From: a virus
IMG/VR virus record: IMGVR_UViG_3300014050_000012
Coordinates: 1 to 64,000 of that record
Strand: one strand, 5' to 3'
DNA length: 64,000 nt
Made by a program: the position numbers and the translations under genes. How positions within the stretch are numbered: the stretch's first letter is position 1; every line of letters begins with the position of its first letter. The notes beneath the pieces are model-generated. The model saw only the letters and a program-made list of their open reading frames with translations. It did no database searches and was not told where the DNA came from. This document shows positions 1 through 10,835 of the stretch, in pieces.

Positions 1-16
1 CATCATTTTCTCCTTT

Positions 17-208
17 TCAAACAAGATACCACGGATCGCCCGCTTCGTCAAGATACACTTCGTCAAAAATATCGTCAGCACAACCTACAACTTCCGCCCA
101 GTCGAGCGGATGGCAGTCGTTCTCATCAATCGGCTCGACCATCGGCTCTACGATACCAGCGTCGGCCATTTCCGCAAGAATCCGGTTGACATTGTCGAAA
201 TCGTACAT
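17..208 (-). CDS. small acidic hypothetical protein (63 aa)
   Basis: ORF with GGAGGT Shine-Dalgarno just upstream and a TTGACA-N16-TAGAAT promoter at 236-263. Confidence 0.75.
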   Translation of the reverse strand: MYDFDNVNRILAEMADAGIVEPMVEPIDENDCHPLDWAEVVGCADDIFDEVYLDEAGDPWYLV

Positions 209-235
209 GAGAACCTCCGTTGGGGTGATGCGTGG

Positions 236-263
236 ATTCTACACTAATGATCGGCACTGTCAA
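236..263 (-). promoter_or_regulatory. sigma70-type promoter TTGACA-N16-TAGAAT
   Basis: near-consensus hexamers on minus strand upstream of ORF 17..208. Confidence 0.7.
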
Positions 264-318
264 GCAGAAAATCTTAGAAAATCTAAAAATAATCTTGTGC
301 CAAACGAAAAAATTTTTG

Positions 319-334
319 TGGCACACCGTATGCT
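319..334 (+). promoter_or_regulatory. sigma54-type -24/-12 element TGGCAC-ACCGT-ATGCT
   Basis: GG-N10-GC spacing with TGGCAC core. Confidence 0.5.
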
Positions 335-347
335 TAGTCTTTTGTTC

Positions 348-427
348 TAAGTGGTTGATACATAAGCACTTACGTCGCGGCGGGCGGCCCGATTTCGCTG
401 TAAGTCCTTATACGGTAAGAGTTTACG
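348..427. repeat. ~80-bp intergenic element, copy 1 (two TAAG..TT-N7-AA..TTAC boxes 53 bp apart flanking GGCGGCCCGATTTCGC)
   Basis: direct alignment with 1092-1173 and 2460-2542. Confidence 0.9.
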
Positions 428-495
428 CTGACTATGGCACCACTATGCAAACCCGTAGGGTTAGGTGAGACAGTGTGGATGCCTTGTCACCCCCC

Positions 496-693
496 TCAAT
501 TGGTGGCAGTTGCCACGGGTGACCGATATACTATATGACCACACTTATTAGCATAGAGTGAACGATATCCCACATTATAATCATTAATAAGTAGCAAGAT
601 ACCCTTTCCGGGAATGTTACGGATACTCTCAACCGGACCCTCGAAAACTTCGCCGGTCACATATACCACATGAACGATATCACCAATCTTCAT
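496..693 (-). CDS. small hypothetical protein (65 aa), near-identical paralogue of 1757..1954
   Basis: MKIGDIVHVVYVTGEVFEGPVE... occurs twice with mostly synonymous differences; own promoter at 720-747. Confidence 0.85.
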   Translation of the reverse strand: MKIGDIVHVVYVTGEVFEGPVESIRNIPGKGILLLINDYNVGYRSLYANKCGHIVYRSPVATATN

Positions 694-719
694 TTTTCTT
701 TCTCCCTTTGTTTTCTACA

Positions 720-747
720 ATCCTACCAAACTTTTCCGTCGATTCAA
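720..747 (-). promoter_or_regulatory. sigma70-like promoter TTGAAT-N16-TAGGAT
   Basis: same architecture as five other promoters in 236-2913. Confidence 0.6.
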
Positions 748-753
748 CCCCTA

Positions 754-897
754 TTAGGATGGGCAGGTCGGATCGTCGATTTCCTCAATAACGCAGTCGC
801 AGTGTTCCCAGCATCGGGGACACAATTCGAGACCAGCGATATCACCAACAATCTCAACACCACAGCAATCGGAATAGTAAACTTCAATCTTGCTCAT
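754..897 (-). CDS. 47-aa Cys-rich putative Zn-binding protein (MSKIEVYYSDCCG...CPRCWEHCDC...)
   Basis: manual translation (below ORF-track cutoff); purine-rich leader and promoter at 929-956. Confidence 0.7.
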   Translation of the reverse strand: MSKIEVYYSDCCGVEIVGDIAGLELCPRCWEHCDCVIEEIDDPTCPS

Positions 898-928
898 TCT
901 TTTCTCTCTTTCTTTCTCTTATATCGAC

Positions 929-956
929 ATTATACCATGGATTCTTTAGGTTGCAA
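929..956 (-). promoter_or_regulatory. sigma70-type promoter TTGCAA-N16-TATAAT with extended -10 TG
   Basis: consensus -10 plus TGn; upstream of 754..897. Confidence 0.7.
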
Positions 957-1020
957 GAAAAATCTGGAAATTTTTGTGTCAAGAGATTTTGACAAAACTT
1001 TTCATAATTTTCTTCCATAT

Positions 1021-1077
1021 TGGCACACCATATGCTAGAGCAATTGTCATACCAAAAATCATGGCATAGAGTTTGCT
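1021..1077. promoter_or_regulatory. cluster of three sigma54-type -24/-12 elements (1021-1036 +, 1039-1054 -, 1062-1077 +)
   Basis: TGGCACACCATATGCT, TGGTATGACAATTGCT (minus) and TGGCATAGAGTTTGCT, all GG-N10-GC. Confidence 0.55.
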
Positions 1078-1091
1078 ATTAGCATTTGTTG

Positions 1092-1173
1092 TAAGTCGTT
1101 ACCACATAAGCACTTGCGTCACGGCGGGCGGCCCGATTTCGCCGTAAGTCCTTACGGTTCAAGACTTTACGTC
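1092..1173. repeat. ~80-bp intergenic element, copy 2
   Basis: alignment with copies 1 and 3; identical 53-bp box spacing. Confidence 0.9.
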
Positions 1174-1185
1174 GAGCCCATCCCT

Positions 1186-1392
1186 CTACAGGGTGGGGAA
1201 TACCTCGGCAGGGTGGATAGCGCGGGCCGTACCATCATCACGGATAGCATAGTGAACGCCACCCACAGTGTACAAACTAACATCACCACCCAAGTCGCAC
1301 AAGTACATGGCCGAATGTCCATGAATTGCAATCAAACGAAGCAACGTTTTTTCCACCGCAAGTTGAATCGTCATGTGTTCACTCATCTCCAA
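1186..1392 (-). CDS. small hypothetical protein, paralogue of 2548..2697 (likely start MTIQ at 1374)
   Basis: shared MTIQ..TL.RL.A.HG.SA...LY..GG..Y.IR.DGT. Confidence 0.75.
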   Translation of the reverse strand: MEMSEHMTIQLAVEKTLLRLIAIHGHSAMYLCDLGGDVSLYTVGGVHYAIRDDGTARAIHPAEVFPTL

Positions 1393-1696
1393 TAAAGGGA
1401 CTCATTTCATCTTCACTAAGTCTAGCATACTGTTCCGCAAGAGCAACCACCCTTTCGGGGGAACCGGGCTGTCCAACCGGGAAACGCATATGATCTACAG
1501 TACCCACAACGCGAGGATCGACCTTTTCGACCTTACTCTTACCGATCTTTCGTAGGGCTGAACGATTGAACTTCAATACCTTTTCACTTCGAATACTACC
1601 ACCATCAGCGGTACGCTTGTCGCAAGGGATCGCAATGCCGTAGAAGATACCACGCACTGTACGCTTGTACTGTTCAACAATTGGGAACTTTTCCAT
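1379..1696 (-). CDS. hypothetical protein (105 aa)
   Basis: ORF with purine-rich leader and promoter at 1725-1752. Confidence 0.75.
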   Translation of the reverse strand: MEKFPIVEQYKRTVRGIFYGIAIPCDKRTADGGSIRSEKVLKFNRSALRKIGKSKVEKVDPRVVGTVDHMRFPVGQPGSPERVVALAEQYARLSEDEMSPFIGDE

Positions 1697-1724
1697 TTTC
1701 TCTTTCTCTCTTTCTTGTGTGCTG

Positions 1725-1752
1725 ATTCTACCAAACTTTTCCGCTGCCGCAA
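1725..1752 (-). promoter_or_regulatory. sigma70-like promoter TTGCGG-N16-TAGAAT
   Basis: repeated promoter architecture. Confidence 0.6.
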
Positions 1753-1756
1753 CCCC

Positions 1757-1954
1757 TCAATCGGGTGTGACTGCTACGGGTGATCGGTAGACTATATGAC
1801 CACACTTGTTAGCATAGACCGAACGATACCCTACAGTATCGTCGTTGATGAGAAGCAGAATACCCTTTCCGGGAATATTCCGAATTCTCTCAACTGGACC
1901 TTCGAACACTTCACCTGTTACATAGACAACATGGACGATATCGCCAATCTTCAT
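1757..1954 (-). CDS. small hypothetical protein (65 aa), paralogue of 496..693
   Basis: high amino-acid identity to 496..693. Confidence 0.85.
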   Translation of the reverse strand: MKIGDIVHVVYVTGEVFEGPVERIRNIPGKGILLLINDDTVGYRSVYANKCGHIVYRSPVAVTPD

Positions 1955-1978
1955 TTTTTTCTCTCTTTCTTTCCTTCA

Positions 1979-2006
1979 AGTCTACCAAAAAAATTCGCCG
2001 CCGCAA
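1979..2006 (-). promoter_or_regulatory. sigma70-like promoter TTGCGG-N16-TAGACT
   Basis: repeated promoter architecture. Confidence 0.6.
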
Positions 2007-2025
2007 CCCCCCTTATAGGGAAGGA

Positions 2026-2244
2026 TCACTCTTCGATCACAACCCTTTCCAATTCGATAGGACCGTTATCCTTGTAGGACTGCGGAATCTTTGAGAGGGC
2101 TTCACCCTCACTAATTCCACCTACCTTACCGATACGCTTGCCATTCTGGTAAACTATCCACAAGTTAGTACGAACATGACGATGGCGGTTAGACCGCTCA
2201 TCACGATAGGACCGAAGGGCTGAACTGTAACGATTCATTCTCAT
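2026..2244 (-). CDS. small basic hypothetical protein (start probably MRMNRY at 2244)
   Basis: the ORF-track upstream extension runs through the sigma54 promoter and the purine-rich leader, so the later ATG is preferred. Confidence 0.65.
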   Translation of the reverse strand: MRMNRYSSALRSYRDERSNRHRHVRTNLWIVYQNGKRIGKVGGISEGEALSKIPQSYKDNGPIELERVVIEE

Positions 2245-2290
2245 TCTCTTTCTCTCTTTCTTTCTTTCTTTCTTTACTACCCTATATATA

Positions 2291-2445
2291 TGCACTTCCC
2301 ATGCCATTCACCAAAAAATATTTTTTTCTTCCTAAGTCCTTACGCCACAACACTTTACAACTTTCTCATTTTGAGACGGGGGTGTGCCAAGGTGAAGCAT
2401 TTTGCTACAGGTGTTGCATTTTGCTACAGCATTTTGCTACACCAC
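2291..2445 (-). promoter_or_regulatory. sigma54 promoter module 1: -24/-12 (2291-2306), IHF-like box (~2333-2358), TCTCA-N3-TGAGA palindrome, three GCATTTTGC repeats
   Basis: TGGCATGGGAAGTGCA on minus strand; whole module is repeated at 3221-3372. Confidence 0.65.
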
Positions 2446-2459
2446 CTTTGGGGTCGATG

Positions 2460-2542
2460 TAAGTGCTTGATATATAAGGAGTTACGTCAAAAATGGCGGC
2501 CCGATTTCGCCGTAAGTCCTTATACCACAACGGTTTACGTCG
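2460..2542. repeat. ~80-bp intergenic element, copy 3
   Basis: alignment with copies 1 and 2. Confidence 0.9.
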
Positions 2543-2547
2543 AATTC

Positions 2548-2697
2548 TCACAGAATCGTACCATCCCCTCTAATGCGGTACATGATGCCGCCGATACTGT
2601 ACAGACATATACCCTCTCCCATATGCTGTACAAACGTAGCCGAATAACCGTGGTGAGCAACAAGGCGACGAAGCGTATTCTGTATTTGAATCGTCAT
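2548..2697 (-). CDS. 49-aa hypothetical protein, paralogue of 1186..1374
   Basis: manual translation MTIQIQNTLRRLVAHHGYSATFVQHMGEGICLYSIGGIMYRIRGDGTIL. Confidence 0.7.
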   Translation of the reverse strand: MTIQIQNTLRRLVAHHGYSATFVQHMGEGICLYSIGGIMYRIRGDGTIL

Positions 2698-2699
2698 GT

Positions 2700-2861
2700 T
2701 CAAGATACCTTTGCAGATTCTGCTTTGTAAATCGGATAGAACTGTTCGAAGGTAAGGTTAGTGTACTTCAGTATACCAGCAACGTACAGGTCATACCGAT
2801 CATTCTTACCTTCTGTCATCGTCCAAACGATATACCGATAATCTTGTGTCCAACGTTTCAT
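2700..2861 (-). CDS. 53-aa hypothetical protein (MKRWTQDYRYIVW...)
   Basis: manual translation; purine-rich leader and promoter at 2886-2913. Confidence 0.65.
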   Translation of the reverse strand: MKRWTQDYRYIVWTMTEGKNDRYDLYVAGILKYTNLTFEQFYPIYKAESAKVS

Positions 2862-2885
2862 CTTTTTCTCTCTTTCTTTTCTACG

Positions 2886-2913
2886 ATCCTACCAAACTTT
2901 TTTTCTACCACAA
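2886..2913 (-). promoter_or_regulatory. sigma70-like promoter TTGTGG-N16-TAGGAT
   Basis: repeated promoter architecture. Confidence 0.55.
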
Positions 2914-2931
2914 CCCCCCGACTAGGGGCTA

Positions 2932-3162
2932 TTACTGGATCGCATAATCATCGACCACATAACCCATTTCATCAATCTGGATGAATCCACCATCATCACA
3001 GAATCCTAACTCATGATTGATTTCGATCATGTTATCATTCTGGCGAACCCTTTCCAGAAGATCCATTGCAAAAGCAACTCGACCAACAAACGTAGTCATG
3101 GTCGTATTGTTGATCAACTCGCACAACTCACTAACCGTATTCAGCACAATCATGTTTTCCAT
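2932..3162 (-). CDS. small acidic hypothetical protein (start probably MENMIV at 3162)
   Basis: the ORF-track start lies inside the sigma54 element; later ATG has an AAAAGGA leader. Confidence 0.65.
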   Translation of the reverse strand: MENMIVLNTVSELCELINNTTMTTFVGRVAFAMDLLERVRQNDNMIEINHELGFCDDGGFIQIDEMGYVVDDYAIQ

Positions 3163-3220
3163 CTTATCTATCCTTTTTCTACTTGTTTCCGAAACCCCTT
3201 GTTTCGATGCCAGATATATA

Positions 3221-3372
3221 TGCACACCCCGTGCCATTCGAGAAAAAAAATAGGATTTTTCATAAACCCTTGAAAAATATAGGGTTACAGCATTCTCAAT
3301 TTGAGACGGGGGTATCGATCACCGTAGCATTTTGCATCACACTGTAGCATTTTGCACAGCATTTTGCGTCAC
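3221..3372 (-). promoter_or_regulatory. sigma54 promoter module 2: -24/-12 (3221-3236), IHF-like box (~3263-3289), TCTCA-N3-TGAGA, three GCATTTTGC repeats
   Basis: TGGCACGGGGTGTGCA on minus strand; homologous to 2291-2445. Confidence 0.65.
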
Positions 3373-3495
3373 CCGCTCAGTAGGGGGGTTTTTTCATTTT
3401 ATTGAGAACGATTCTCAAAACTGGCGGCGGCCGGGGGTGGTGCAAACACGATCCGAACACCATAAAATAATTGGCCGTATTCCCTAATAACTAAT

Positions 3496-3520
3496 AAAAA
3501 AAGGGAGCATGATGCTCCCC
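3496..3520 (-). terminator. intrinsic terminator
   Basis: GGGAGCAT/ATGCTCCC inverted repeat followed on the minus strand by T7, downstream of 3550..3798. Confidence 0.7.
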
Positions 3521-3549
3521 AATTTTATCTGATACTAACTTCTATATTT

Positions 3550-3798
3550 TCAATTAGAAGCTTGAACACCAGAGCTAACGATACTATCTTGAATAAAGTT
3601 TCTATTTTTGGGTTTCCTTCCGCGACTCTTTTTCAAAGATAGTTTTCGTCTTTGTCTCCTAATCATTGGCGCTGTAATCTGATCATTGCCAGATATTCTG
3701 CTTATGTTTAATGCTAATTCATCATCGCTTAGTATAGCATGATTATCTTTTATATACTGCAACTCTGTTGTGCTCCACTTATGGTAAGATGACCTCAT
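3550..3798 (-). CDS. small HTH-like DNA-binding protein
   Basis: KWS..ELQYIKDN...SDDELA...IRRQRRKL pattern typical of small phage HTH/Myb-like proteins; AAGGAG RBS. Confidence 0.55.
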   Translation of the reverse strand: MRSSYHKWSTTELQYIKDNHAILSDDELALNISRISGNDQITAPMIRRQRRKLSLKKSRGRKPKNRNFIQDSIVSSGVQASN

Positions 3799-3878
3799 AT
3801 TTATCTCCTTGAACTAGACTAAAGGTGTAGTAACCTTATTATTATAATACGATCATAACCGTTAGCAAGGGCCGCTTT

Positions 3879-4040
3879 ATGAATAAAAATTACAATTTTG
3901 TACCGTCAGTATTACATACTACAGCACAAGAAATAGATGTTACAAATGATCTACAGGCCGAATCCACAAAAACAATAGCAGAACTACTGCATGAAAAAAA
4001 AGAAGAAGAAAAAGACCCAAAAGCCTTGTTTACCGAATAA
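3879..4040 (+). CDS. 53-aa hypothetical protein (MNKNYNFVPS...)
   Basis: manual translation; 55 bp downstream of the GGTGTA motif at 3824. Confidence 0.45.
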   Translation: MNKNYNFVPSVLHTTAQEIDVTNDLQAESTKTIAELLHEKKEEEKDPKALFTE

Positions 4041-4623
4041 TGTTCAAGAAGAAGACTTTTTAAAAGCCATAGATAATGTTGCTAAAAAATTAGCACATAA
4101 ATTTAAATTTGGATATCATAGTTTTGAAGATATGAAACAACAAGCTATTATTTTTGGCTTAGAATGCTTAGATAAATACGATAACAAAAGACCCCTAGAA
4201 AACTTCCTATGGACCCACGTTAGAAATAGACTTTTCAATTATAAAAGAGATCACTATCAAAGGCCCGATAAACCTTGTTTTAAATGTCCCGAAAACGATC
4301 CTTACCTTTCCTGCTCAAACAATGGATGTAAAGCATTTTCAAACAAGAGCGATTGCGAACTATACAAATTATGGGAAAAAAGAAATAATAATAAGAAAAA
4401 TTTAATGACTCCACAAAATATAGATGATATGAATATTTTTAGTAATGAATCTAGTATTTGTGGTGATATTGCAAATAAGGAACTATTAGAACTAATAGAC
4501 AAACACATGTTACCATCAGACAGGGCCGTTTATATCAAATTAAAACACGGACAAAAAATACCTAGTGCAGAATTAAACAAACTTAAAGAAACTATACTAA
4601 ATATTATAGCTAATTACCAATGA
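3991..4623 (+). CDS. phage-encoded sigma70/ECF-like sigma factor with Cys-rich insertion
   Basis: region-2-like EDMKQQAIIFGLECLDKYD...ENFLWTHVRNRLFNYKR; C-terminal region-4-like helices. Confidence 0.7.
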   Translation: MKKKKKKKTQKPCLPNNVQEEDFLKAIDNVAKKLAHKFKFGYHSFEDMKQQAIIFGLECLDKYDNKRPLENFLWTHVRNRLFNYKRDHYQRPDKPCFKCPENDPYLSCSNNGCKAFSNKSDCELYKLWEKRNNNKKNLMTPQNIDDMNIFSNESSICGDIANKELLELIDKHMLPSDRAVYIKLKHGQKIPSAELNKLKETILNIIANYQ

Positions 4624-5441
4624 CTATTCCTAAAAAAAGAGGACAACTGAGCTTAGACGAAGAAAAATATATTAAAGATAATATTCATTCTTTATCCGTG
4701 GCCGATATTGCTAATAATCTTAACAGAAACATAGCCCCGATACAAAAATATGCCGAACAAAACTTTTTATTTACTGATCAAGAATCTATAGCAGATCTTG
4801 AATATTTAAAACTTAAACTTCATACTAAGCCGTTTTGGCCCGAAATTACTAAACAATTTGACAACACATCAGGAGAATTAGAATACTTTGAGAATACATG
4901 GGTAAGCTTAATTAAACAATTTAGAGAAGATGTTCTTCCTGCTGAAGAATTACAAATTAAACAATTTATTACTATTGATATTCTTATTAATCGCAGTATG
5001 AAAGAGCGTAAAAGACACATAGCCGACACTGAAAAAATACAAAATGAGGTTGATAAAGAGTATGCTAAAAGTGAAGATCAAAGAGATATTCCGAAATTGG
5101 CCAACCTGGAAACGCAACTATCATTCGCCCGTAACAGTATCGCTAATTATACTAATGAATATACCAAGCTTCTTAACGAACAACAAAAAATTAGTAAAGA
5201 TCTTAAAGCTACTAGGGAGCAAAGAATCAAACGAATAGAAGATGGCAAAAGCTCTTGGGTAGGATTAATACGAATGTTGGAAGACGAAGAATTAAGAGAA
5301 AAACAAGGTCGTGAAATGGAAATATTGAAATTAGCCACTCTTAATCAAAAAAATAAACTTGAGCAACTTCACTCATACTCTAATAATAATATAGACCGCC
5401 CCCTTTTAACACCAGAAAGCGTGGAAAAATATGACAAATAA
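4620..5441 (+). CDS. coiled-coil protein with N-terminal HTH-like segment (possible terminase small subunit)
   Basis: EEKYIKDN...SVADIANNLNR HTH-like start; coiled-coil; position upstream of terL. Confidence 0.35.
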   Translation: MTIPKKRGQLSLDEEKYIKDNIHSLSVADIANNLNRNIAPIQKYAEQNFLFTDQESIADLEYLKLKLHTKPFWPEITKQFDNTSGELEYFENTWVSLIKQFREDVLPAEELQIKQFITIDILINRSMKERKRHIADTEKIQNEVDKEYAKSEDQRDIPKLANLETQLSFARNSIANYTNEYTKLLNEQQKISKDLKATREQRIKRIEDGKSSWVGLIRMLEDEELREKQGREMEILKLATLNQKNKLEQLHSYSNNNIDRPLLTPESVEKYDK

Positions 5442-7209: not shown

Positions 7210-7762
7210 TTTTCCCATAACAATTACTCCTCCGCCATATACTGATCCATCAACTAAAAAAATTACTCAGCCAGAATCTATAACTTTACAAGATTTAAAA
7301 ATAACTTATATTGATAGTCCGGATCAAAAAAAATTAGTAGCAAGAATAGACTCATTACCCTATGTGCTTCCTTTGGTGGAGTCAGATCAAGAATATGATA
7401 ATTTGGGTGATTATTCTAGTTCCATTAGAGAAAAACTAGTTAAAGAAAAACTAGGATCAGATCCGGCAGCTAAAATAAGATCTTTGTTTCCTCCTACGTT
7501 AGAAGAATTTCCAAATGGTCCTGGTACAATACTATCACAAATCATTAAAAGCGTTGGCATATCTATAACACCAACATGCAAATGCATGAAACATGCTAAT
7601 GAAATGAATACTAAAGGAGTACAATGGTGCGAAGATAATATAGAAACAATTATAGAATGGCTTAAACAAGAATGTAAAGAACGAAATATTCCATTTATTC
7701 CAACAGTAGTTCGTATGGTTGTTAATCAAGCTATTAGTAAAGCTAAAAAACATGTCATATAA
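7199..7762 (+). CDS. hypothetical protein with GPGT/CxC/WC domain, paralogue of 34566..35135
   Basis: full-length similarity to 34566..35135. Confidence 0.7.
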   Translation: MKLDFPITITPPPYTDPSTKKITQPESITLQDLKITYIDSPDQKKLVARIDSLPYVLPLVESDQEYDNLGDYSSSIREKLVKEKLGSDPAAKIRSLFPPTLEEFPNGPGTILSQIIKSVGISITPTCKCMKHANEMNTKGVQWCEDNIETIIEWLKQECKERNIPFIPTVVRMVVNQAISKAKKHVI

Positions 7763-10700
7763 TTTTGATGATGCATGGTTAGGTCTAGGAGATTTATCTA
7801 AACTAACTATTAGTCGTAATCTTATGATTAATAGATCCAGAGAAGATATAGAAAATCCAGATAAACATTTATTAAAAATTATGAGAGATCCCAATTATTT
7901 AGGATCAACATGCAAACTACTAATGAACATTGAACTACATCCTATACAGATAGCAATATTACAAGAATTTTGGAATAGAGCTTTTCCAATGTTTGTTGCT
8001 AGTCGTGGTTTTGGTAAAAGTTTTTTATTAGCACTATACGCTACATTAAAATGTATCTTTATTCCCGGAACCAAAATAGTTATAGTTGGTGCAGCATTTC
8101 GTCAAAGCAAAGTGATTTTTGAATACATGGAAACGATTTGGAGAAATAGCCCAATTCTAAGGAGCATATTCAATGGCAATGACGACGGCCCGCGAAGAGA
8201 TGTTGATAGATGCACAATGAGATATGGCGACAGCTGGGCTATTGCTATTCCAATGGGTGATGGATGTCTTACTTCTGATACCATGATAACATTCAGTAAT
8301 TGTTTTTCAACACTAGGATCATTATTTGATTTAGATTACGATGAAGAACTAGATACTGTTAATAACTGTGAAGTTTGGGACAATATTAAGTTTGAAAAAA
8401 GTTTACATAAAAGATATAATGGATTAAAAGATACAATTAAAATCAAAACAAAAAGAGGATTTGTTCTAGAGGGGACACATAATCATGAAATTAAGGTATT
8501 TGATGGAAATAATGTGATTTGGAAAAGATTAGATTCTATCAACATAAATGATAAAATCCTAATAGATGTATCAGAAAGATGGCACGAAGGAACAACAGAA
8601 CTAACAACAGACGAATCTTATGCTTTAGGATTGATGATAGGAGATGGCTGTTGGACCAATAAATATAGATTAAGATATACATCTAATGATCCAGAACTAG
8701 TAATAGCATTAGAAAAAGGCACAGGATATAAATTTTATCAATGTTCTGATGGTATTCATTATAATCATGATAGTATAAAAAATGTTAAAAAATGGATGAA
8801 CAAGTGGCAAATTGATCATACATATACTAAAGACAAGCATTTACCAGAACCTATTCTTCATAGTTCTCAAGAAATAATGAGCGCTTGTTTAAGAGGTATT
8901 TTTGATACAGATGGACATGTTCAAGGGAATAAGGCCAAAGGAGGTATTGGAATAACAATAAGTTTAACCAATACTTCAGAAAAATTAATGAAACAAATTC
9001 ATTATATTTTATTACATTACGGTATTGTCTCTACTCTTAAATCGCGAAAACGCAAAAAACAATGGAATACTATTTATGAGTTATTGATTAATGGTTATAA
9101 CGTCAAAAAATTTGCAGAAAAAATTGGCTTTGGATTAAAACGTAAACAACATTCTCTAATAGAATATATATCAAAAAAACAGAAATGGTTATCTCAAGAA
9201 AAATATTATAATAGTTTTTTATTAGATTATATTACAGATATTAGTTATGATCGTAATTACACATACGATATAGAAGTTGAAAATTCTCATCAATATAATG
9301 CTAATGGTATATGTGTTCATAATAGTAAAATCAGAGGTCTAAGAGCACATATTATTATCGCAGACGAATTTGCGTCAATATCTCCAGATATTTATGAAAC
9401 GGTTGTTTCAGGTTTCGCAGCCGTGAGCGCTAGTCCAATACAAAATGTAAAAGAACAAGCTAAAAAAACAGCGATGCAAGAAATGGGCATATGGAATGAT
9501 GAATTAGAAGCATTAGACACAAAAATGAGCAATCAGGCCATAATAGCAGGAACAGCCGACTATGCTTTTAAGCATTTTGCTAAATATTGGAATAGATATA
9601 AAACTATTATTAATAGTAAAGGAGATATTAATAAACTCAAAGATGTATTTCCAGAAAGTGTTCCAGAAAATTTTAATTGGAAAGACTATAGTATAGTAAG
9701 AATACCATATGAATTAATTCCTAAAGGATTTATGGATGATAAACAAGTTGCTAGAGCAAAAGCCACTATTCATACTGGTATCTATAATATGGAATATGCC
9801 GCTTGTTTTGTTGAGGATAGTGAAGGATTTTTTAGGCGTAGTCTAGTAGAAAGTTGTGTTGTATCAACAGAAAAAAATATCACAGATTCCCAAGGAAGAC
9901 CAATACTTTTTGACGCAACAGTTAAGGGTTCCTCACACAAGCAGTATATATATGGCATCGATCCTGCATCAGAAAATGATAATTTTAGTATAGTTATTTT
10001 AGAATTAAACAATGATCATAATAGAGTAGTATATTGCTGGACAACTAATCGTAGTAATTTTAAAGATCGTCAAAAGACAGGGCTAGTAGAAGATCATGAC
10101 TTCTATGGTTTTTGTGCAAGAAAAATTAGAAATTTAATGAAAACTTTTCCATGCGCTAGAATAGGATTAGATGCTCAAGGAGGAGGTATAGCTATAGAAG
10201 AAGCTTTACATGATCCTGATAAGTTAAATGATGGAGAAATATTAATTTGGCCAACTATAGACTACAGCAAATCCAAAGAAACTGATAATCAGCAAGGATT
10301 GCACATACTTGAACTTATACAATTCGCTAGAGCAGATTGGACTAGTCAAGCTAATCATGGTTTACGAAAAGATATGGAAGATAAAGTATTGCTATTTCCA
10401 AGATTTGATAATCTTACACTAGGTTTAACACTAGCATCAGAGGGACAGGATATATTAACAACAGATCTTAATCCTATTTATGATAATCTTAGCGAATGTG
10501 TTGTAGAAATTGAAGAACTTAAAAACGAATTAACCACAATTGTTATGACACAAACTAGTCAGGGCCCCAATGCTAGAGATAGATGGGATACTCCAGAAGT
10601 AAAACTAACTAGCGGTAAAAAAGGTAGATTAAGAAAAGATAGATATAGCGCATTACTTATTGCTAATATGCTAGCAAGACAAATGACTAGATCATATAAA

Positions 10701-10835
10701 ACTATCGAATATGATGTTGTAGGAGAAAACGCTAAAAATGCTACAAAATTAAATGGTCAAATGTACAAAGGTCCAGAATGGTTTACGTCCAACGCTAATG
10801 ATAATGATATATATTTGGGTATTTATAATAATTGA
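7752..10835 (+). CDS. terL: terminase large subunit, intein-interrupted
   Basis: Walker A ASRGFGKS, Walker B IIIADE, C-terminal nuclease YGIDPA...KDRYSA; start likely MSYNF at 7752 (ORF track 7719). Confidence 0.88.
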   Translation: MSYNFDDAWLGLGDLSKLTISRNLMINRSREDIENPDKHLLKIMRDPNYLGSTCKLLMNIELHPIQIAILQEFWNRAFPMFVASRGFGKSFLLALYATLKCIFIPGTKIVIVGAAFRQSKVIFEYMETIWRNSPILRSIFNGNDDGPRRDVDRCTMRYGDSWAIAIPMGDGCLTSDTMITFSNCFSTLGSLFDLDYDEELDTVNNCEVWDNIKFEKSLHKRYNGLKDTIKIKTKRGFVLEGTHNHEIKVFDGNNVIWKRLDSININDKILIDVSERWHEGTTELTTDESYALGLMIGDGCWTNKYRLRYTSNDPELVIALEKGTGYKFYQCSDGIHYNHDSIKNVKKWMNKWQIDHTYTKDKHLPEPILHSSQEIMSACLRGIFDTDGHVQGNKAKGGIGITISLTNTSEKLMKQIHYILLHYGIVSTLKSRKRKKQWNTIYELLINGYNVKKFAEKIGFGLKRKQHSLIEYISKKQKWLSQEKYYNSFLLDYITDISYDRNYTYDIEVENSHQYNANGICVHNSKIRGLRAHIIIADEFASISPDIYETVVSGFAAVSASPIQNVKEQAKKTAMQEMGIWNDELEALDTKMSNQAIIAGTADYAFKHFAKYWNRYKTIINSKGDINKLKDVFPESVPENFNWKDYSIVRIPYELIPKGFMDDKQVARAKATIHTGIYNMEYAACFVEDSEGFFRRSLVESCVVSTEKNITDSQGRPILFDATVKGSSHKQYIYGIDPASENDNFSIVILELNNDHNRVVYCWTTNRSNFKDRQKTGLVEDHDFYGFCARKIRNLMKTFPCARIGLDAQGGGIAIEEALHDPDKLNDGEILIWPTIDYSKSKETDNQQGLHILELIQFARADWTSQANHGLRKDMEDKVLLFPRFDNLTLGLTLASEGQDILTTDLNPIYDNLSECVVEIEELKNELTTIVMTQTSQGPNARDRWDTPEVKLTSGKKGRLRKDRYSALLIANMLARQMTRSYKTIEYDVVGENAKNATKLNGQMYKGPEWFTSNANDNDIYLGIYNN
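8265..9323 (+). mobile_element. intein (353 aa) with LAGLIDADG homing endonuclease
   Basis: N-terminal CLTSDT, block B GTHNHE, LGLMIGDG and LRGIFDTDG motifs, C-terminal YDIEV...VHN followed by Ser. Confidence 0.92.

Follow-up and report, generated by a model that had tools for sequence, protein, structure and literature searches.

Does an uncultured freshwater phage place some of its genes behind promoters of the sigma-54 (RpoN) class, which remain off as long as no signal has turned on their specific, ATP-driven activator? The question is raised by two paralogous ~155-bp cassettes, here called modA and modB, on the minus strand of the first 64 kb (the window) of the 88,908-bp IMG/VR record IMGVR_UViG_3300014050_000012, a record that CheckV rates as 59% complete. 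A first-pass annotation had described the two as a duplicated and complete sigma-54 enhancer-promoter module preceding small genes. On comparing sequences within the record and across its relatives, we consider it probable that modA and modB are enhancer-dependent sigma-54 promoters, and that they constitute a portable cassette of this phage lineage.

The two cassettes have the same elements in the same order and with the same geometry (Table 1). Reading along the minus strand, three dyads with a GCAAAATGC core are followed by a second dyad, TCTCA-N3-TGAGA, an A-run/T-run tract, a TGGCAY-N5-GTGCA box, a TATATAT stretch, a purine-rich leader and a small open reading frame (ORF). modA and modB can be aligned over their full length, and the conserved islands fall exactly on these named elements. 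Each GCAAAATGC core lies at the middle of a near-dyad that spans 17 bp in a 7-3-7 arrangement, of the TGTAGCA-AAA-TGCTACA type; sites for the activator NtrC are likewise 17-bp dyads of 7-3-7 geometry. The boxes of modA and modB lie 36-48 nt before ribosome-binding leaders and start codons. All distances within the cassettes are counted from the predicted transcription start, which was placed 12 nt after the C of the -12 element.

The duplicated module described in the first-pass annotation was recovered in the same minus-strand order, and its three repeats, TCTCA-N3-TGAGA dyad, TGGCA(T/C)-N5-GTGCA box and downstream small gene were confirmed in both cassettes. The exception is a proposed TAA-N4-TT box for integration host factor (IHF). 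The IHF consensus WATCAANNNNTTR is matched in modA only (3275-3263), with one mismatch, and there is no match at the homologous place in modB; moreover, one-mismatch matches run at 3.3 per kb in this AT-rich window, which is the background frequency. What is conserved instead is the A-run/T-run tract, which probably forms an intrinsic bend and may serve to bend the promoter DNA.

Table 1. Coordinates of the cassettes, of their elements and of other features of the window; centres and starts refer to the predicted transcription start.
Feature	Position	Strand	Details
modA cassette	3372-3221	-	
modB cassette	2445-2291	-	
modA enhancer, three GCAAAATGC cores	3367-3359, 3355-3347, 3335-3327	-	centres ~-153, -141, -121
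modB enhancer, three GCAAAATGC cores	2437-2429, 2424-2416, 2405-2397	-	centres ~-153, -140, -121
modA second dyad, TCTCA-AAT-TGAGA	3294..3306	-	centre ~-90
modB second dyad, TCTCA-AAA-TGAGA	2364..2376	-	centre ~-90
modA A-run/T-run tract, AAAAA-TCCTA-TTTTTTTT	3243..3260	-	ends 6 nt before the -24 box
modB A-run/T-run tract, AAAAAAA-TA-TTTTTT	2313..2327	-	ends 6 nt before the -24 box
modA putative -24/-12 box, TGGCACGGGGTGTGCA (GG-N10-GC), then TATATAT	3221..3236	-	predicted start near 3210
modB putative -24/-12 box, TGGCATGGGAAGTGCA (GG-N10-GC), then TATATAT	2291..2306	-	predicted start near 2280
Operon after modA, ORFs of 76, 53 and 49 aa	3162-2932, 2861-2700, 2697-2548	-	no family match
Operon after modB, ORFs of 72, 65, 105 and 62 aa	2244-2026, 1954-1757, 1696-1379, 1374-1186	-	no family match
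Predicted sigma-70-type promoter, TTGCTA-16-TATAAT	3841..3868	-	consensus scan; serves the 82-aa ORF (3798-3550)
Predicted sigma-70-type promoters of two further units	956-929, 263-236	-	consensus scan
Predicted intrinsic terminator, 8-bp GC-rich stem and T-run	3502..3520	-	closes the 82-aa gene and insulates modA from read-through
Sigma-70-family-like protein, 210 aa, region 2 only	3991-4623	+	Pfam Sigma70_r2, 20.4 bits, below cut-off; PHROG 1740 'RNA polymerase sigma factor', E 1.6e-6
Four extra sigma-54-type boxes (GG-N10-GC)	319-334, 1021-1036, 1062-1077, 1054-1039	+, +, +, -	same arm as the cassettes
80-bp repeat, three copies	348-430, 1092-1175, 2460-2545		long inverted repeat ATAAGSASTTRCG ... 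YGTAAGTCCTTA around a GC-rich core

The elements occur well above their chance expectation. We found seven copies of GCAAAATGC in the window, which are also the only seven in the whole 88.9-kb record, and six of them make up the two cassette triplets; the chance expectation is 0.67, and none of 100 shuffles reached seven. Promoter boxes were sought by IUPAC consensus scans. TGGCAY-N5-KTGCW has three matches in the window against 0.13 expected, two of the three being the modA and modB boxes, and TGGCAY-N5-NTGCW has seven in 88.9 kb, five of which lie within the first 3.5 kb, all of them intergenic. A perfect consensus box at 72007 lies inside a 1564-aa ORF, has no enhancer and was treated as a chance or intragenic site. 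A consensus scan of the minus strand found no sigma-70-type promoter within modA or modB.

A scan for the second dyad recovered the cassette from 14 viral contigs of close relatives, most of which have two copies spaced 970-1000 bp apart, and some relatives have a third copy. In 15 distinct module copies the GG and the GCAT are invariant with no insertion or deletion between them, and the seven bases that separate GGCAY from GCAT are replaced wholesale (GGGGTGT, GGGAAGT, GACATTC, GGAAAGT, AGTAAGT and GGCATTC). The single changes seen in close copies (TGGTAC, CGGCAC) spare the GG. Module identity between relatives is 0.92, as compared with 0.70-0.74 at third codon positions of the adjacent ORF; given this difference from neighbouring synonymous sites, we conclude that the non-coding cassette is under purifying selection. 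The first ORF after modA has relatives that are 93-95% identical in protein and only 70-74% identical at third codon positions, an indication that it is a real gene, itself under purifying selection.

The cassette is portable and fronts different genes in different relatives, modA being joined to an unrelated ORF in one of them (L015/G001) and to other ORFs elsewhere. Some relatives also carry a perfect TGGCACAGATTTTGCA box that points in the opposite direction, 42 nt from the modA sites. Upstream of modA, at 3401-3430 on the minus strand, we observed TTGAGAA-TCG-TTCTCAA, in which the half-sites of TCTCA-N3-TGAGA stand in inverted order; at this position other relatives retain one TTCTCAA half-site only.

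The pattern extends to a wider viral family. Two sites 3-4 nt apart were found at 99 viral loci, compared with a rough estimate of ~3.5 expected. When the matches were reduced to 79 unique sequence windows, 41 proved to carry TGG[CT]A[CT]-N5-NNGC[AT] at a fixed distance, amounting to 28 different boxes from 51 loci; the others are mostly unrelated coding repeats. Positions that the filter left free follow the sigma-54 consensus TGGCACG-N4-TTGCW, with a G following TGGCAC in 32 of 39 and a T preceding GC in 34 of 39, and the N4 spacer, at 0.1-0.8 bit, is nearly free. The GG-to-GC spacing is invariant in the 15 close and the 41 wider copies. Across the 41 module variants the site centres fall into two classes, (-153, -140, -121) and (-130, -118, -98), separated by a shift of ~22 bp or two helical turns, and the inner site spacings of 12-13 and 19-20 bp are retained. 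Many wider-family modules start with TTGCAAAATGCAA, and the A-run/T-run tract before the box is widely retained. The second dyad varies by sub-lineage (TCTCA-N3-TGAGA, TGCCA-N3-TGGCA and others). The RpoN-type, enhancer-dependent layout that was originally proposed is thus upheld by a conserved GG-N10-GC with a free spacer, by consensus bases at filter-free positions, by phased distances and purifying selection, and by the lack of a sigma-70-type promoter.

A comparison with characterized bacterial promoters leads in the same direction. With enhancer-dependent sigma-54 promoters such as glnAp2, with its NtrC sites, and zraP/zraSR, the cassettes share the GG-N10-GC form of the -24/-12 box, near-consensus flanks, several 17-bp 7-3-7 dyads 100-150 bp upstream and the lack of -35/-10 hexamers. 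Both -12 variants of the phage family, GTGCA and TCGCA, are also found among the E. coli sites to which sigma-54 binds in vivo (glnA, TTGGCACAGATTTCGCT; an intragenic site, ..GATGTGCA), and the zraP box, TGGCACGGAAGATGCA, matches that of relative L166 in every base (PMC4591121 Table 1). The TCGC -12 variant of glnAp2 recurs in phage relatives. Unlike bacterial promoters, the phage cassette has an A-run/T-run tract where an IHF site is often found, has an extra, lineage-variable dyad near -90, and is joined as a portable unit to different small genes in a carrier that has no gene for sigma-54 or for an activator.

This last point rests on searches for the two protein domains concerned. Neither the contig nor any of the nine relatives checked for Sigma54_activat, two of which are rated 100% complete, yielded such a gene, and Sigma54_DBD was likewise not found in the contig and the five relatives examined for it. 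Weak Sigma54_activat matches in G001, G917 and G920 are to AAA+ ORFs of 297-309 aa, the one in G001 being RuvB-like and 37-48% identical to bacterial RuvB, and these were rejected as bacterial enhancer-binding proteins (bEBPs). Because neither gene was found in the phage or in the relatives checked, both sigma-54 and its activator would have to come from the host if the boxes work as they look. Thus, where the first-pass annotation left the choice between a host and a phage bEBP, the phage-encoded variant finds no candidate in the contig and nine relatives, and reliance on a non-phage activator stands.

These elements suggest how the cassettes may work. At the TGGCAY-N5-GTGCA box, the sigma-54 RNA polymerase of the host would form a closed complex, and the three 7-3-7 dyads at about -153, -140 and -121 would serve as the assembly site of a host activator of the NtrC family. 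Bending by the A-run/T-run tract, to which a factor on the TCTCA-N3-TGAGA dyad at -90 possibly contributes, would bring the activator's ATPase into contact with the polymerase, whereupon the promoter would open and transcription would start ~12 nt after the GC. The outcome would be conditional expression of two operons, of three and four small proteins, that have no other promoter.

Several points weigh against a sigma-54 assignment. Since most copies share a common descent, the counts above are not independent events. Both metatranscriptome runs with the region exist as assembled contigs only and give no 5' ends, so that the start sites are predictions; one RNA contig, spanning 2934-5005, crosses divergent genes, and since DNA carry-over is possible it is uninformative on expression. 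A host rpoN and a matching activator are presumed. The palindromes, which were to be matched to a host bEBP regulon, found no counterpart: an enhancer-plus-promoter regulon (a site, 70-100 nt and a box) was not found in 401 sampled Planctomycetota genomes (4 single-site matches against 1 in the control) or in 151 Burkholderiales genomes (0). In a scan of all genomes for two GCAAAATGC sites 3-11 nt apart, 101 of the 142 matches listed are 7-bp tandem repeats of the GCAAAAT type, mostly from metagenome-assembled genomes (MAGs) of gut Clostridia. Within the phage itself, TGGCA recurs in the arm face-to-face and in palindromes, a distribution more operator-like than promoter-like, and an A/T-only, TATATAT-like stretch follows the GC in all copies, alongside a phage gene for a sigma-like protein.

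These last two observations are at the core of an alternative that we consider unlikely, namely that the cassettes are promoters or operators for phage factors. TATATAT would then be a -10-type element for the sigma-like protein encoded at 3991-4623, in the manner of T4 gp55, or for host sigma-70, and the dyads and the TGGCA box would bind phage regulators such as the 82-aa protein. The sigma-like protein, which has region 2 only, could be a late sigma factor; the arm and relatives contain TGCCA-N3-TGGCA dyads, as well as TGGCA...TGCT pairs placed face to face; and the 82-aa gene, with a sigma-70 promoter and terminator of its own, sits directly upstream of modA. That gene, however, is not conserved beside modA, where three different upstream flanks are found among the relatives. 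A -10-type role for the A/T stretch meets similar difficulties, since there is no conserved -35 partner or TG extension, relatives read TCGCAT, and a GCATATATAT-type stretch was not seen in the inspected gaps before structural genes. Moreover, the conserved positions give the full sigma-54 consensus, filter-free bases included, and the GG-to-GC distance never varies, both of which argue for a sigma-54 box.

The genes that would be controlled lie in the leftward arm (~3870 to 1), which comprises four or more transcription units. Searches of ten small ORFs against Pfam and PHROGs gave nothing useful, and an Rfam search of positions 1-4200 gave no match. Predicted sigma-70-type promoters elsewhere in the arm (Table 1) indicate that ordinary host promoters are, by consensus, also used there. 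Some of the small genes are paralogous within the window (1954-1757 and 693-496; 2697-2548 and 1374-1186).

The arm also holds four extra sigma-54-type boxes, which are linked in position to an 80-bp repeat. The boxes at 319 and 1062 end ~13-14 nt before the repeat copies at 348 and 1092. The 1021 box precedes the latter copy by ~55 nt. The minus-strand box at 1054-1039, TGGTATGACAATTGCT, faces the box at 1021, their -12 ends abutting. Relatives retain both members of this facing pair, and the 1062 box is lost in some. In relatives every copy of the 80-bp repeat has as its neighbour a site triplet or else a plus-strand sigma-54-type box. Only the third copy (2460-2545) folds better than its shuffles, with z ~-3.3 on both strands. 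The extra boxes could be promoters for antisense or small RNAs, sigma-54 sinks or operators.

If such boxes can be sinks, so in principle could those of modA and modB, which would bind sigma-54 holoenzyme with no productive promoter role and act as sinks, roadblocks or insulators between gene cassettes. Closed complexes of sigma-54 are stable even when no activator is present, and in E. coli many of its sites are intragenic and not productive (PMC4591121); five boxes are found here within 3.5 kb, in both orientations and some of them face to face. A decoy, however, would hardly be expected to keep a fixed distance to three activator-type dyads or to lie 36-48 nt before ribosome-binding leaders and start codons, and the modA and modB boxes are the only promoter-like element of their operons. 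We therefore regard a purely binding role for them as quite improbable.

The repeated elements raise a further, non-transcriptional alternative. In public assemblies from several lakes we observed alternative joints among the repeated intergenic elements of window positions 1-3200 (for example 755 to 2934, 1075 to 2528 and 2358 to 2507), from which we conclude that small-gene cassettes are shuffled in natural populations. Many relatives' contigs also break at or near the modules. Could the repeats themselves be a replication origin with iterons, or sites of recombination or packaging by which the small-gene cassettes are also shuffled? Three same-orientation repeats beside an A/T tract are iteron-like, and both the joints (755 to 2934, 2358 to 2507) and the contig breaks would fit. 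Any duplicated sequence is expected to recombine at its repeats, however, and an origin would leave unexplained the perfectly spaced GG-N10-GC box with its sigma-54 consensus, the constant phasing of box and repeats, the position right in front of genes and the presence of two to three copies per genome. We accordingly give this explanation very little credence, and enhancer-dependent promoters remain the interpretation that we carry forward.

Which host would supply the sigma-54 and the activator? The first-pass annotation had suggested a sigma-54-rich host such as Planctomycetota, and one gene lends this a little weight. The DUF1501 gene of relative G001 has orthologues, 48-58% identical, in 16 of 121 Planctomycetota and 2 of 121 Verrucomicrobiota, and in none of 121 Bacteroidota or 121 Pseudomonadota; its Atlas neighbours are mostly Planctomycetota, and sigma-54 is present in 41 of 41 sampled Planctomycetota genomes. 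We take this, from one gene in a relative, as a weak hint of a Planctomycetota host, one that the 33.7% G+C of the phage genome fits poorly and that the search for a matching enhancer regulon in the 401 genomes did not bear out. Gmd gave no signal as a host-affinity gene. The 'provirus' label of G001 was considered as a source of host flank and rejected, the G+C being uniform at ~32%, the RuvB-like gene divergent and no host flank recognised. This 178-kb relative (L036, 160-178 kb) encodes the DUF1501 protein of Planctomycetota type, a volactin-family actin homologue, a subtilase, a trypsin-like protease, the divergent RuvB-like ATPase and one tRNA-Leu(CAA).

Among the other all-genomes matches listed are leaders of Alphaproteobacteria flagellin genes and isolated clusters that have no sigma-54 box. 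In the flagellin leaders, two GCAAAATGC copies stand 9 nt apart, downstream of a sigma-54 box. Among the bacterial genomes L037-L156, gut Clostridia and other MAGs commonly contain imperfect tandem arrays of a 7-bp GCAAAAT-type unit, often as inverted pairs ~100-200 bp apart.

The phage itself is present in lake, pond and other freshwater metagenomes from 11 studies, and searches by DNA and by capsid and portal proteins found no relatives among isolated phages. Besides the small-gene arm, the window encodes an intein-split large terminase, tail fibres, a GDP-mannose dehydratase and the small sigma-70-like protein, whose gene is transcribed away from that arm. The large terminase gene (7719-10835, plus strand) contains an intein with a LAGLIDADG homing endonuclease domain. 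Ribosome sites of the GGAG type precede several structural genes.

A lead on the cassette's mode of action comes from the Vibrionaceae. Published motifs of sigma-54 activators include UAS_LuxO, TTGCAWWWTGCAA, and UAS_SypG, TTCTCANNNTGMDWN (PMC10162802). The core GCAAAATGC is also the core of the LuxO site of V. cholerae qrr1, ttgcaaaatgcaa (PMC10328515, chromatin immunoprecipitation sites). By inspection, the window sites match the core of the LuxO 13-mer TTGCAWWWTGCAA at 9 of 9 positions and the 13-mer overall at ~9 to 12 of 13, and the exact 13-mer TTGCAAAATGCAA is the first site in wider-family modules. The second dyad, GTCTCA-AAW-TGAGAA, matches 11 of the 12 specified positions of the SypG motif TTCTCANNNTGMDWN, again by inspection. 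The LuxO/SypG systems and the phage family thus both have sigma-54 promoters in which the two motif types are combined. Unlike qrr, the phage units would yield small proteins rather than Qrr small RNAs, as there is no Rfam match and the ORFs are under purifying selection, and the phage has three sites with spacings of 12-13 and 19-20 bp. Unlike the Vibrionaceae, moreover, this is a lake-water phage of low G+C, with no evidence for a Vibrio host. We therefore take the likeness as suggestive of the mode of action and not of the binding protein, and claim no membership in these systems.

The use of sigma-54 by a phage has one published precedent in the literature that we searched, as far as its accessible text goes. 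Pseudomonas aeruginosa phage YuA uses sigma-70 promoters as well as sigma-54 promoters (Ceyssens et al. 2008; cited, and mapped anew, in the accessible part of PMC10914365). That part describes no enhancer array in YuA, whereas here a full enhancer-promoter grammar is duplicated and is conserved in at least 51 viral loci; YuA has no sequence relationship to this phage.

We also put forward, tentatively and with considerable doubt, a broader scheme. Large freshwater phages of one widespread lineage may have copied the enhancer grammar of a LuxO/SypG-like two-component pathway of their hosts, such that a swappable cassette would make small take-over proteins only when that pathway, responding to cell density, surface or nutrient state, is on. 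The plus-strand boxes at 319, 1021 and 1062 would drive antisense or small RNAs from the 80-bp elements, and the arm as a whole would be a decision circuit wired through sigma-54. That the phage senses host physiology, as the first-pass annotation also proposed, is at present something we infer.

A complete enhancer-promoter grammar that is conserved, phased and portable is found across at least 51 uncultured viral loci, from lakes and in many studies. By placing genes behind sigma-54 promoters while encoding neither the sigma factor nor an activator, such phages would hand the timing of these genes to a sensory pathway of the host. If this is true, prediction of the host would be constrained to bacteria that have rpoN and an activator that binds sites of the TTGCA-W3-TGCAA type, and the family would be a defined case, open to testing, in which phages read the physiology of their host via borrowed enhancers.

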